64,000 bases of DNA from Escherichia coli (lineage in GTDB: Bacteria > Pseudomonadota > Gammaproteobacteria > Enterobacterales > Enterobacteriaceae), in the NCBI RefSeq assembly GCF_030013205.1, contig NZ_CP122648.1; one strand, given 5' to 3'. This document shows positions 38,303-42,542 of this stretch, one piece after another (position 1 is the stretch's first letter; each line of letters begins with the position of its first letter). The translations under genes and the position numbers were made by a program. The notes under the pieces were generated by a model. The model was given only the letters and a program-made list of their open reading frames with translations, searched no databases and was not told the DNA's origin.

Positions 38303-38415
38303 ATTAGTTAAATGATTAGTCCCCGGAAAAAGGCAGAATTTTCTTTAAGCGTATTAGCTCAGATGCGGACTGACACCTCAAATCAAGCGGGAACTCATGG
38401 TTCCCGCTTAACGTT

Positions 38416-39303
38416 TTATTCACCGCGCAGGATCTGGCGGAAATGGGAAACCAGCGGACGTTGGTTGGCTTTATGCCAGGCTGCCCATAATTGCGTTGAA
38501 TAATTCATCCACGGCAATTCACGTAATACCACCCCTTCCGGCGCATTATGACGCAGACTATGTTGAATTAAGGCCAGACCTAATCCCGCAGCGACCAAAC
38601 CTAATGCCGTGAGGGGTTCACCCGCTTCCAGGCGAATATCAGGATTAAACCCGGCGTTAACACAGGCGGCGACAAAATGATCGCGAGAATGCGCATCGTC
38701 GTTATGAATCACCGCAATCCACTGCTCATCGCCAAGTTGTGACGCGACAAGGTTTTCCTCCTGCGCCAGAGGATGATTTTGCGGTAAGGCCAACAACATT
38801 CGATCATCCAGAACCTGAATATATTCCAGATCCTGCTCGCTGTCGGTGGGCGGCGTATCGACCAGAGAAAAATCGAGACTGCGCTGGCGCAGGCCTTCAA
38901 TCTGGGTAGCCGGTGGTTGGCTGTAAAGTGCGATATGCACATTCGGACGCGATACACGTAACGTACGTAGCGCCGTAGAAAGCACACCGGAATGCATGGC
39001 GTTTTCGATATAGCCAATACACAAGCCACCATCTTCCCCCCGTCCCAGGCGTTTGCCTAACGACTCCAGGCGGTTGGCGTGTGTCAGCAACGAACGTGTT
39101 TCGGCAAGGAATGTCTGTCCATCAGCGGTCAGGCGAATGCGCTGCTGATTACGCTCAAACAGCGTCAGCCCCAGCCGTTCTTCCAGTTGTGCAATCTGGC
39201 GGCTCAGCGGTGATTGCGAGATATGTAATCGCTCGGCTGCGCGTCCCACGTGCTCTTCTTCTGCGACCACCACGAAGTACTTCAGTTGGCGTAAATCAAT
39301 CAT
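38416..39303 (-). CDS. LysR-family transcriptional regulator
   Basis: N-terminal HTH MIDLRQLKYFVVVAEEEHVGRAAERLHISQSPLSRQIAQLE; divergent from the oxidoreductase operon; start trimmed to the ATG at 39303. Confidence 0.85.
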   Translation of the reverse strand: MIDLRQLKYFVVVAEEEHVGRAAERLHISQSPLSRQIAQLEERLGLTLFERNQQRIRLTADGQTFLAETRSLLTHANRLESLGKRLGRGEDGGLCIGYIENAMHSGVLSTALRTLRVSRPNVHIALYSQPPATQIEGLRQRSLDFSLVDTPPTDSEQDLEYIQVLDDRMLLALPQNHPLAQEENLVASQLGDEQWIAVIHNDDAHSRDHFVAACVNAGFNPDIRLEAGEPLTALGLVAAGLGLALIQHSLRHNAPEGVVLRELPWMNYSTQLWAAWHKANQRPLVSHFRQILRGE

Positions 39304-39368
39304 GTTAGACCTCAAAGGACTTAAGTCAGACGAATTATGTCCTATCAAGTCACAACATCGCAAGGTAT

Positions 39369-39384
39369 TGTGATCCACGTCACA
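39369..39384. promoter_or_regulatory. consensus CRP binding site
   Basis: TGTGA-tccacg-TCACA, perfect match to both CRP half-sites, 53 bp upstream of the AKR start codon. Confidence 0.6.
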
Positions 39385-39436
39385 GGGCGATAGCAAAAAA
39401 ATGCCCTAACCCAAACCGAATAATTGAGGACATCTT

Positions 39437-40447
39437 ATGAGCATCAAAAATTTACTTCCCGGCAAAATTGGCTTAGGCGGCGCACCACTCGGCAACATGT
39501 TCCGTGCCATTCCGGAAGACGAGGCCCACGCCACCGTGAGCGAAGCCTGGAACCTGGGCGTGCGTTACTTTGATACCGCGCCGCTGTACGGCTCTGGCCT
39601 TTCTGAAATCCGCATGGGCGAAGCGCTGTCTCAGTATCCACGTGATGAATACGTTCTGAGCAGCAAAGTCGGCCGCATCATGCTGGACGAAATGGAAGAT
39701 CCGGCAAAACGTGATTTCGGTGAAAAAGGTGGCCTGTTCGAACATGGCCTGAAAAACAAAATTCTGAATGACTACTCTGCTGACGCCACGCTGCGCTCGA
39801 TTGAAGACAGCCTGAAACGCCTGAAAACAGATCGTCTGGATATTGTCTGGATCCACGACCCGGCGCAGGACTTCTACGGTGACAGCTGGCTGGAGCAGTT
39901 CAACATAGCCCGTACCGGTGCGTTTCGTGCGCTGACGCGTTTGCGTGACGAAGGTGTGATTAAAGCCTGGGGACTGGGTGTGAATCGCGTCGAACCTTGC
40001 GAACTGACGCTGGCGCTGGACGAACCGAAGCCGGATGCGTTCCTGCTGGCGGGGCGTTATTCCCTGCTGGATCACGAACGTGCGCTGCAACGCCTGATGC
40101 CAGAAGCACTGGAACAGAACGTGGATATTGTTGTGGGCGGTCCGTACAGCTCTGGCGTACTGGCAGGCGGCGAGCACTTTGAATATCAGAAAGCTTCTGC
40201 GGCCATCCAGCAGAAAGTGGCGCAAATTAACACCATTGCCACACGTTTCAATGTGAACGTTAAAGCAGCTGCGCTGCAGTTCGCGCTGGCAAACCCGGCC
40301 GTTGCGGCGGTTATTCCTGGCTCCAGCCGTCCTGGCCGTATGGCAGAAGATCTGGCTGCACTGAATGCGCCTGTTCCGGCTGAATTCTGGGCAGAAATGC
40401 GCCGTCAAAATCTGGTTGCGGAAAACGCTCCACTGCCGACCCGTTAA
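39437..40447 (+). CDS. aldo/keto reductase family oxidoreductase
   Basis: 336 aa with AKR N-terminal region (GLGGAPLGNMF...DTAPLYGSG). Confidence 0.85.
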   Translation: MSIKNLLPGKIGLGGAPLGNMFRAIPEDEAHATVSEAWNLGVRYFDTAPLYGSGLSEIRMGEALSQYPRDEYVLSSKVGRIMLDEMEDPAKRDFGEKGGLFEHGLKNKILNDYSADATLRSIEDSLKRLKTDRLDIVWIHDPAQDFYGDSWLEQFNIARTGAFRALTRLRDEGVIKAWGLGVNRVEPCELTLALDEPKPDAFLLAGRYSLLDHERALQRLMPEALEQNVDIVVGGPYSSGVLAGGEHFEYQKASAAIQQKVAQINTIATRFNVNVKAAALQFALANPAVAAVIPGSSRPGRMAEDLAALNAPVPAEFWAEMRRQNLVAENAPLPTR

Positions 40448-40466
40448 TCAACCTGGTGAGAAAACG

Positions 40467-41264
40467 ATGAAACTGGATCTGACAGGTAAAGTCGCGGTGG
40501 TCAGCGGCTCAACCTCCGGCATTGGGCAGGGTATCGCCGCCGGACTGGCAAAAGCAGGCGCAACGGTGGTTGTCGTCGGCCGTAAACAGCGCGGCGTTGA
40601 TGACGCCATGGCTGCGATTGCGGCACAAACTCCCACGGCGTCACTGCGTGGCGTGGTGGCCGACCTCAGCACCGAAGACGGCGTGACTGCGCTGATCGCT
40701 GCAGTCCCAACGGCTGATGTGCTGGTCAATAATCTGGGCATTTTCAACGATAAAGATTTCTTTAGCGTTCCGGATGATGAGTGGCTGCACTTCTATAACG
40801 TCAACGTCCTCTCCGGCGTTCGTCTGGCGCGTCACTATGCGCCAGGCATGACGGAACAGGGCTGGGGGCGGATTATCTTTGTCTCGTCCGAATCCGGCGT
40901 GGCAATTCCTGGCGACATGATCAACTACGGCGTCACCAAAGCTGCGAATCTGGCGGTTTCTCATGGTCTGGCGAAACGACTGGCAGGGACCGGTGTGACC
41001 GTCAACGCCATTCTGCCAGGGCCAACCTTTACCGATGGCCTGAAAGAGATACTGGCGGATGCCGCTGCACAATCGGGGCGCAGTGCGCGTGAACAGGCCG
41101 ATGAGTTTGTTAAAACCTCGCGTCCGAGCTCCATCATCCAGCGTGCGGCGGATGTGGAGGAAGTAGCGAATCTGGCGGTTTATCTCGCGTCACCGCTTTC
41201 CTCGGCAACCACAGGGGCAGCTCTGCGCGTCGATGGCGGTGTCGTCGACACCCTGACTATGTAA
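40467..41264 (+). CDS. short-chain dehydrogenase/reductase (SDR)
   Basis: MKLDLTGKVAVVSGSTSGIGQGIA (TGxxxGxG) and YGVTK active-site motif; ORF-track upstream extension trimmed. Confidence 0.88.
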   Translation: MKLDLTGKVAVVSGSTSGIGQGIAAGLAKAGATVVVVGRKQRGVDDAMAAIAAQTPTASLRGVVADLSTEDGVTALIAAVPTADVLVNNLGIFNDKDFFSVPDDEWLHFYNVNVLSGVRLARHYAPGMTEQGWGRIIFVSSESGVAIPGDMINYGVTKAANLAVSHGLAKRLAGTGVTVNAILPGPTFTDGLKEILADAAAQSGRSAREQADEFVKTSRPSSIIQRAADVEEVANLAVYLASPLSSATTGAALRVDGGVVDTLTM

Positions 41265-41289
41265 CCCTATAAATTAAGAGAAAATTATC

Positions 41290-41706
41290 ATGGCTAAAAC
41301 AACTGTATCGATCGAAATTCCGGCTTCTGCCGACGCCGTATGGCAATTGATGGGCGGCTTTGATGCGCTGCCAGACTGGCTGCCGTTCATCCCGAAAAGC
41401 GTAGTGACAGAAGGCGGTCGCGTTCGTTCGCTGACAACCTCTGACGGCGGCACTGTGGTTGAACGTCTGGAAGCGTTTGATAACCGTCAACGCAGTTATA
41501 CCTATTCCATTATTCAGGCACCGTTCCCGGTGGTGGATTACCTCTCCACCATTACCGTTCATGAAACCGCCGACAGCCAGGTTTCCCGTGTGGAATGGTT
41601 CGGTGAATTCACCCCGGTGAATGTGACGAACGAAGAGGCCGAAGCGCTGTTTACCGGCATCTATCGGGATGGTCTCAAGGCGCTGAAGGACAACTTTGTT
41701 GCCTGA
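41290..41706 (+). CDS. SRPBCC-superfamily (polyketide cyclase-like) small protein
   Basis: 138 aa, pattern resembles SRPBCC ligand-binding proteins; family by recall. Confidence 0.5.
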   Translation: MAKTTVSIEIPASADAVWQLMGGFDALPDWLPFIPKSVVTEGGRVRSLTTSDGGTVVERLEAFDNRQRSYTYSIIQAPFPVVDYLSTITVHETADSQVSRVEWFGEFTPVNVTNEEAEALFTGIYRDGLKALKDNFVA

Positions 41707-41863
41707 TGCGATCGACAGGCGTCGGAACGTCCGGCGTCTGATTATTAACAAAATCAGAATAGTCTATTGCCATTTGTATCATTTATGTTATCAGGCAGTA
41801 GGCGTATTCTCTCCCCATCGCGTTAATAAACGCCAAACAATTAAGACACTCTGGAATATAAAC

Positions 41864-42124: not shown

Positions 42125-42316
42125 TTGCCATTAATAAACCGTATTGTAATGCCACCGATGACGCGTTCCCGTGCGGGTGCGGGTGACGTTGCGATTGACA
42201 TGATGGCGGAGTATTACGCGCAGCGCGCCAGTGCAGAACTTATCATCAGCGAAGGTACGCAAATCAGCAGAAGCGCTGCGCATAATTTTCCACGGCCCGC
42301 TGATTTACTCCGGTAA
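42125..42316 (+). pseudogene. N-terminal fragment of an old-yellow-enzyme (NemA-like) flavin oxidoreductase
   Basis: 63 codons with OYE N-terminal signature (PPMTRSRA...MAEYYAQRASAELIISEGTQIS) then stop; a complete enzyme would be about 365 aa. Confidence 0.6.
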
Positions 42317-42542
42317 ATAGACCAAAGCGCGCGCCGAAGCGGACTGTCAGATTTGATTGCATTCTGGCTACGCAACTGATCGGTTGGAGTATGAAGTTGC
42401 TCACGAATAGCCTTAGCATCTGCAATTTCGTAGCGGGTCACCCGTGCAGGTTCTTTCTAATCTCAACAGCCTCTTCCAGAGAGTTTTTCAACTCATCAAA
42501 AAAACTCAATTTATACCTCGCCTTTGAGCCGTTTCATCACGG

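Follow-up and report, generated by a model that had tools for sequence, protein, structure and literature searches.

A perfect CRP-type palindrome over the predicted promoter of a LysR-linked reductase operon in Escherichia coli: possible repression by promoter occlusion

What does a perfect recognition core for the cAMP receptor protein (CRP) do when it lies between a LysR-type regulator gene and the oxidoreductase operon that diverges from it? The question is raised by a palindrome in the window analyzed here, a stretch of 64,000 nucleotides of the Escherichia coli chromosome that is 100% identical to swine ETEC/O139 genomes. E. coli possesses both crp and cya. An earlier note described the palindrome as two exact CRP half-sites with the correct 6-bp spacing, located about 60 bp before the start codon of an aldo/keto reductase (AKR) gene and within the divergent intergenic region, and the sequence confirms this description. 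The palindrome, TGTGATCCACGTCACA, which is embedded in ...ggtatTGTGATCCACGTCACAgggcg..., consists of the pentamers TGTGA and TCACA separated by TCCACG, and the two pentamers match the CRP core at 10 of 10 positions. The palindrome is inside a 133-bp divergent spacer (39304-39436); from its dyad center (39376.5), the A of the AKR ATG (39437) lies 60.5 bp downstream, and the lysR ATG (39303, minus strand) is 73.5 bp away.

Perfect TGTGA-N6-TCACA cores are rare. This is the only one in the window, compared with a mean of 0.04 in dinucleotide shuffles (4 of 100 shuffles had at least one match). Versions of the core with up to two mismatches are at the chance level (22 in the window versus 25 expected), and so, the perfect site alone stands out. 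Within the spacer the chance expectation of a perfect core, by simple arithmetic, is about 1e-4 (about 118 frames x 4^-10). When the site is extended to the textbook 22-bp CRP consensus, AAATGTGATCTAGATCACATTT, the equivalent sequence, TATTGTGATCCACGTCACAGGG, matches at 14 of 22 positions, including all 10 of the core. The consensus flanks (positions 1-3 and 20-22) are A/T-rich; the left flank of the palindrome, TAT, is acceptable and the right flank, GGG, is not.

Five genes are present between ettA and nadR: lysR on the minus strand, akr, an SDR oxidoreductase gene, a gene for an SRPBCC protein and one for a DUF1471 protein; these are followed by pseudogene remnants. The akr, SDR and SRPBCC genes are separated by intergenic gaps of 19 nt and 25 nt, and we treat them as one operon (Table 1). 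The AKR has no equivalog-level match, its nearest relatives being AKRs of the L-galactose-dehydrogenase or IolS type, and the SDR likewise has a generic assignment with no equivalog-level match. A literature search for the operon and for its RefSeq protein accessions found nothing, and no known RNA families were found in the island. The island occurs in 482 of 5426 complete E. coli genomes (about 9%), including swine ETEC and O145 STEC. In other genera the recurring unit is lysR-akr-sdr-srpbcc (38414-41707) and the flanks differ; the lysR-akr(-sdr)-srpbcc cassette (loci L114-L118) is a horizontally distributed unit in varied flanking contexts.

The borders of the island have some features of their own. 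On the nadR side are two pseudogene remnants (42149-42271 and 42373-42509). One is a truncated 'hypothetical protein', the translation of which resembles, by eye, the N-terminus of Old Yellow Enzyme; the other is a frameshifted, truncated nadS. In most E. coli genomes (4114 with 80-90% partial matches) nadS is intact and adjacent to nadR, and so the arrival of the island disrupted it. On the other side the convergent ettA and lysR genes have a strong terminator-like hairpin, AAGCGGGAACTCATGGTTCCCGCTT (38385-38409, 11 pairs), between them. It marks the island boundary, since homology to the cassette copies of E. coli E69 and E. whittamii stops there (38383-38385). The swine strains E. coli EC556, EC571 and EC581 have an IS200C-family element inside the island, which splits the match in two and gives a span of 4962 bp instead of 4251 bp.

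Table 1. Genes and predicted control elements of the lysR/AKR locus (window coordinates).
Feature	Coordinates	Strand	Description and basis
LysR-family regulator gene	38416..39303	-	295 aa
Putative operator of LysR-type regulator	39307..39351	.	invariant blocks from per-column counts; Escherichia to Streptomyces
lysR promoter (predicted)	39334..39363	-	-35 TTGCGA 39363..39358, 18-bp spacer, -10 CATAAT 39339..39334; predicted start ~39327
Weak -35-like element of AKR promoter	39342..39347	+	CTATCA; 18-bp spacer; within the putative LysR activation site; inferred
Predicted AKR-operon -10	39366..39371	+	TATTGT (TAnnnT); conserved columns; overlaps the left CRP pentamer by 3 nt
22-bp CRP-site equivalent	39366..39387	.	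14/22 to the textbook consensus
Perfect CRP core palindrome	39369..39384	.	dyad center 39376.5; pentamers invariant in 10 enterobacterial-clade spacers
Predicted AKR-operon transcription start	39377..39379	+	6-8 nt past the -10
Small hairpin at predicted 5' end of AKR mRNA	39384..39407	+	GGGC(G)...(U)GCCC; fold
Shine-Dalgarno sequence of AKR gene	39426..39429	+	GAGG; TGAGGACATCTT kept across the clade
AKR/SDR/SRPBCC operon	39437..41706	+	aldo/keto reductase 39437-40447, SDR oxidoreductase 40467-41264, SRPBCC 41290-41706

The locus was compared with 80 genome loci, 29 metagenome loci, three further E. coli variants and five plasmid copies from Burkholderiales and Streptomyces; the plasmid search gave no close enterobacterial copies, and the distant cassettes that it recovered were informative for the -10 element described below. 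The divergent lysR/akr arrangement is kept in nearly all of the loci collected. Orthologs of the LysR protein that are 69-91% identical occur in Klebsiella, Serratia, Pseudomonas, Paraburkholderia, Caballeronia and Janthinobacterium, and the N-terminal DNA-binding region (approximately residues 1-60) is almost invariant among 15 aligned proteobacterial orthologs. The control region of the cassette (AGACCT..GGACTCAAGT..GTCTTGGAC..GTC..TAnnnT) can be recognized at the DNA level from the Enterobacteriaceae to Burkholderiales megaplasmids. Linear plasmids of Streptomyces share it as well, with 67-68% nucleotide identity over the gene ends plus spacer.

The palindrome has a much narrower distribution. 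It is present only in one enterobacterial branch, i.e., Escherichia, E. whittamii, Trabulsiella, a Klebsiella MAG, Yersinia frederiksenii, Raoultella and a metagenomic lineage (L107/L110), and all of the E. coli variants examined retain it. The 6-bp spacers within this clade are TCCACG, TCCTCG, TCTCCG, GCGCCG and TCAGCG. The orthologous spacers of Serratia, Ewingella, Acinetobacter, Pseudomonas, Burkholderiales and Streptomyces do not contain the palindrome; Serratia reads CTTTAGCCTCGTGACG at this position, and the other five have unrelated sequence.

What all lineages do share is a set of invariant blocks on the lysR side of the spacer: AGACCT (39307-39312), GGACTyAAGT (39317-39326), ATTATGTCyT (39334-39343) and GTC (39349-39351). 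They contain four triplets, GAC at 39308 and 39318 and GTC at 39339 and 39349, which are 10 bp apart in each pair and mirror-symmetric about 39329.5; this array is probably a four-half-site operator of a LysR tetramer. A T-N11-A motif of invariant bases (T39312/A39324) is present, and, relative to the predicted AKR start, the blocks extend from -71 to -27. As judged from these columns, the blocks are most likely the operator of the local LysR regulator, arranged as in textbook LysR-activated promoters that have a weak -35.

One might still suppose that the palindrome itself is the recognition or activation site of the adjacent regulator. It lies within a LysR divergent spacer, and a third GTCACA copy 30 bp upstream (39349-39354) forms TCACAA-N12-TTGTGA with the left pentamer. 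However, a site for this regulator would be expected to be conserved along with it, and the orthologous spacers that lack the palindrome retain the invariant blocks. Because the palindrome is absent from these spacers while the DNA-binding region of the regulator is nearly invariant among the aligned orthologs, we conclude that it is not the LysR operator. In addition, the palindrome has T-N10-A or T-N14-A rather than T-N11-A, and it covers -9 to +7 relative to the predicted start, whereas LysR operators usually lie at about -80 to -20, a range into which the invariant blocks fit. The third copy also varies within the clade (TCATA, TCCTA). Such a role for the palindrome is therefore hardly credible. 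The upstream TCACA was also considered as a third functional half-site or as part of a larger operator and was rejected, only its GTC being conserved and the remainder varying within the clade. We note that the two copies are part of a direct repeat, CAAGTCACA (39346-39354) and CACGTCACA (39376-39384), with a 30-bp offset.

The position of the palindrome relative to the promoters depends on how these are assigned. We assign the AKR -10 to 39366-39371 because the columns conserve TAnnnT with a variable middle: among 77 distinct orthologous spacers, T39366 is present in 76 and A39367 and T39371 in all 77, and positions 39368-39370 vary. The hexamer is TATTGT or TAATGT in the clade with the palindrome, TATCTT in Serratia, TATATT in Ewingella and Acinetobacter and TAGGAT in Pseudomonas; further away it is TAGACT in Burkholderiales and TAACCT in Streptomyces. 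The ATTATGTC block is equidistant from the lysR start in 77 of the 79 spacers that have both gene starts, and the ungapped columns stay in register through 39385. The -35-like element of the predicted AKR promoter reads TTGGAC in Pseudomonas, Burkholderiales and Streptomyces. A promoter scan of the spacer made no AKR promoter call (about 7/12 to consensus), and the sole promoter-like site that it called was TTGCGA-18-CATAAT of lysR (9/12 match), both hexamers of which are conserved across the 77 spacers.

With these assignments, the palindrome is centered at about -1.5 relative to the predicted AKR promoter and at about -49.5 relative to that predicted for lysR. The 22-bp CRP site would start exactly at the AKR -10 and span the predicted start, which is a repressing position if the -10 is correctly assigned. 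Neither predicted promoter has the palindrome at an activating position (-41.5, -61.5, -71.5 and so on). Several other promoters were considered and rejected. A class I or class II promoter downstream of the palindrome has no conserved -10 at the required distance in the clade, and the AT-rich GAATAATT before the Shine-Dalgarno sequence, taken as a -10, would give a leader with no ribosome-binding site. Other lysR promoters that would put CRP at -41.5 or -61.5 have poor hexamers by eye (TGATAG, GACTTA), and the scan did not call them.

The pentamers have been maintained while the cassette has diverged. The four clade members most distant from the window share only 78-79% identity with it in cassette DNA, and across eight lineages only 19 of 147 four-fold synonymous sites in akr and 10 of 116 in lysR are invariant (9-13%), which serves as a proxy for neutral change. 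All 10 pentamer positions are invariant across the clade, while in each of the two central columns of the 6-bp spacer three or four different bases occur. From the list of invariant columns, the palindrome is the sole fully invariant 5-N6-5 frame within the spacer. On these counts, the pentamers are under purifying selection, and a functional operator read by a TGTGA/TCACA-specific dimer would be expected to show this pattern. The spacer as a whole is also well conserved, 84 of its 133 columns being invariant in the clade, and so are the CG before and the GGG after the right pentamer. These adjacent invariant bases show that something besides CRP, for example the initial transcribed sequence or the base of a hairpin, also constrains this stretch and could account for part of the conservation, not all of which need be ascribed to CRP. 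At the left pentamer, T39371 of TGTGA doubles as the final base of the predicted AKR -10.

The hairpin in question begins at the last base of the palindrome and is the main helix of a 69-nt fold (-7.8 kcal/mol). In the window alone it is not significant (z = 0.32), and we rejected it as a strong structure on that evidence. A hairpin does, however, recur at this place across lineages (the window, L005-L081 and L107) with different stems, namely GGGCG/CGCCC, GGGCAGT/ATTGCCC, GGCAG/CTGCC, GGTCA/TGACC and GGGGC/GCCCC, and the mean z of -0.86 over 39 sequences indicates a modest, consistent tendency. This recurrence is consistent with transcription of the region just past the predicted AKR start, and the hairpin may be a 5'-terminal stabilizing stem-loop. 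The akr leaders of Klebsiella, Y. frederiksenii, Raoultella and Ewingella (L005, L006, L007 and L010) have an extra insertion of 15-20 nt that folds into a second hairpin, TTCCC-loop-GGGAA, which the E. coli copy lacks.

The earlier note had gone on to propose that cAMP-CRP controls the operon, its regulator or both, and this part stands only with a qualification. A perfect core, selected pentamers and a separate LysR operator agree with it, whereas the usual activating geometry is missing at both predicted promoters; we infer control of the AKR operon or of lysR by cAMP-CRP from the sequence. Our preferred explanation, which we put forward tentatively and at somewhat less than an even chance, is that the palindrome is an operator for cAMP-CRP that selection has maintained and that, at high cAMP, vetoes the transcription of akr-sdr-srpbcc activated by the LysR regulator. 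The cassette would be a classical LysR divergent region, with a minus-strand lysR promoter, an operator at about -71 to -27 and a weak, activator-dependent AKR promoter, to which a CRP operator would have been added in the one branch that includes Escherichia, Trabulsiella, Klebsiella, Raoultella and one Yersinia. High cAMP would put CRP on the AKR -10 and start and RNA polymerase would be blocked, i.e., negative control by occlusion. Any effect on lysR would be indirect, through relieved competition between the overlapping promoters, or weakly negative. The site would have been gained at the cost of a weaker -10, from a TATATT-like hexamer to TATTGT. Repression seems likelier than activation because the CRP site sits on the predicted AKR -10 and start. 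In agreement with this, occlusion of RNA polymerase accounts for repression by CRP sites centered at +0.5 or +4.5 (PMC6301791), and CRP is reported to repress from sites that overlap the core promoter or follow it, the cyaA -10 among them (PMC3050693). Some observations do not fit as well: the start site and both promoters are predicted and the scan made no AKR promoter call, the right flank is unlike the A/T-rich flank that CRP prefers, the invariant CG and GGG and the shared T39371 leave room for other constraints, and Serratia and Ewingella have CRP too, yet their cassettes lack the site. CRP also activates more often than it represses.

That last consideration favors the model implied by the earlier note, in which CRP would activate the AKR operon, lysR or both from a class I or class II position. 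Most characterized CRP sites are activating, the perfect core is in a divergent promoter region, and the AKR is similar to L-galactose dehydrogenase-type sugar dehydrogenases, carbon-catabolic operons being typical CRP targets. The geometry is the difficulty. Class II activation needs a -10 about 21 nt past TCACA, where the clade reads TAACCC, GAACCC, GAACTG, TGAATG and GACCTG with no conserved TAnnnT, and for class I activation the start would coincide with the AKR start codon. Relative to lysR, -49.5 falls between the in-phase activating positions at about -41.5 and -61.5/-71.5. We consider activation unlikely. Coupling of CRP to polymerase, as measured from -60.5 to -76, is strong at -61.5 and -71.5 and drops in between (PMC6301791). 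Even less likely, though it would be the more striking outcome, is that CRP acts as a direction switch between the fully overlapping divergent promoters, the starts of which are about 51 bp apart; the AKR promoter would be blocked and lysR favored or directly assisted from -49.5. Cyclic AMP would then turn the cassette from 'enzymes on' to 'regulator only', and a veto by a global regulator would have been grafted onto a pan-bacterial LysR cassette upon its entry into the Enterobacteriaceae.

CRP might also have little to do with the conservation. The pentamers could be kept as part of a -10, a discriminator or initial transcribed sequence and a hairpin base, with the CRP match fortuitous or with binding of no regulatory consequence. 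Conservation of the spacer as a whole far exceeds that of synonymous sites, the invariance extends into the bases beside the right pentamer, A39384 is paired in the predicted hairpin, and the Pseudomonas spacers are conserved over the same columns with a different sequence. However, two invariant pentamers around a freely varying center are specific to a dimeric reader, and a -10 does not require G39370, G39372 or A39373, which vary in other clades. Moreover, making TGTGA weakened the -10 (TATATT or TATCTT to TATTGT), and a perfect core in the spacer is the rare event calculated above. This explanation has a minor but appreciable probability. If the reader is a dimer, it could be a regulator with similar half-sites, such as a LacI/GalR-type repressor. 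The lac operator contains TTGTGAGC, and the left arm of the palindrome, ATTGTGA(T/G)C, resembles the left arm of that operator, most clearly in the Y. frederiksenii copy, ATTGTGAGCG. On the other hand, the half-sites are 2 bp further apart than those of the symmetric lac operator and the cassette encodes no such regulator. Operators of the LacI/GalR family have a conserved central CG, whereas the center of the palindrome is hypervariable, and a regulator of this type is very improbable here.

Several known systems are comparable. The lac P1 (-61.5) and galP1 (-41.5) promoters of classes I and II have the same recognition core, TGTGA-N6-TCACA, and the lac CRP site is further from the consensus core than the palindrome is. 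Unlike at lac P1 and galP1, the site is at about -1.5 and about -49.5 of the two predicted promoters, with no conserved -10 at a class I or class II distance. LysR-type divergent cassettes such as ilvY-ilvC and benM-benA also have the regulator divergent from its target, an operator (here about -71 to -27) that overlaps the regulator promoter and a weak target -35; unlike in these, one branch of the present cassette has a site for a global regulator downstream of the LysR operator and on top of the -10/+1. The palindrome can also be likened to sites at the cyaA promoter and at synthetic promoters with CRP at +0.5 or +4.5, in which a consensus-type CRP site over the -10 and start is expected to exclude polymerase in a cAMP-dependent manner (PMC6301791, PMC3050693); the AKR promoter differs from them in being predicted, LysR-dependent and overlapped by a divergent promoter.

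If occlusion were confirmed, the AKR promoter would be one more CRP-repressed promoter, a minority class of the CRP regulon, and the kind of mechanism would not be new. It would mean that a horizontally spread LysR cassette gained host-specific global control through about five substitutions over its own -10/+1. Expression of the reductase operon would then have to be sought at low cAMP, i.e., in glucose-replete cells, and not at high cAMP.
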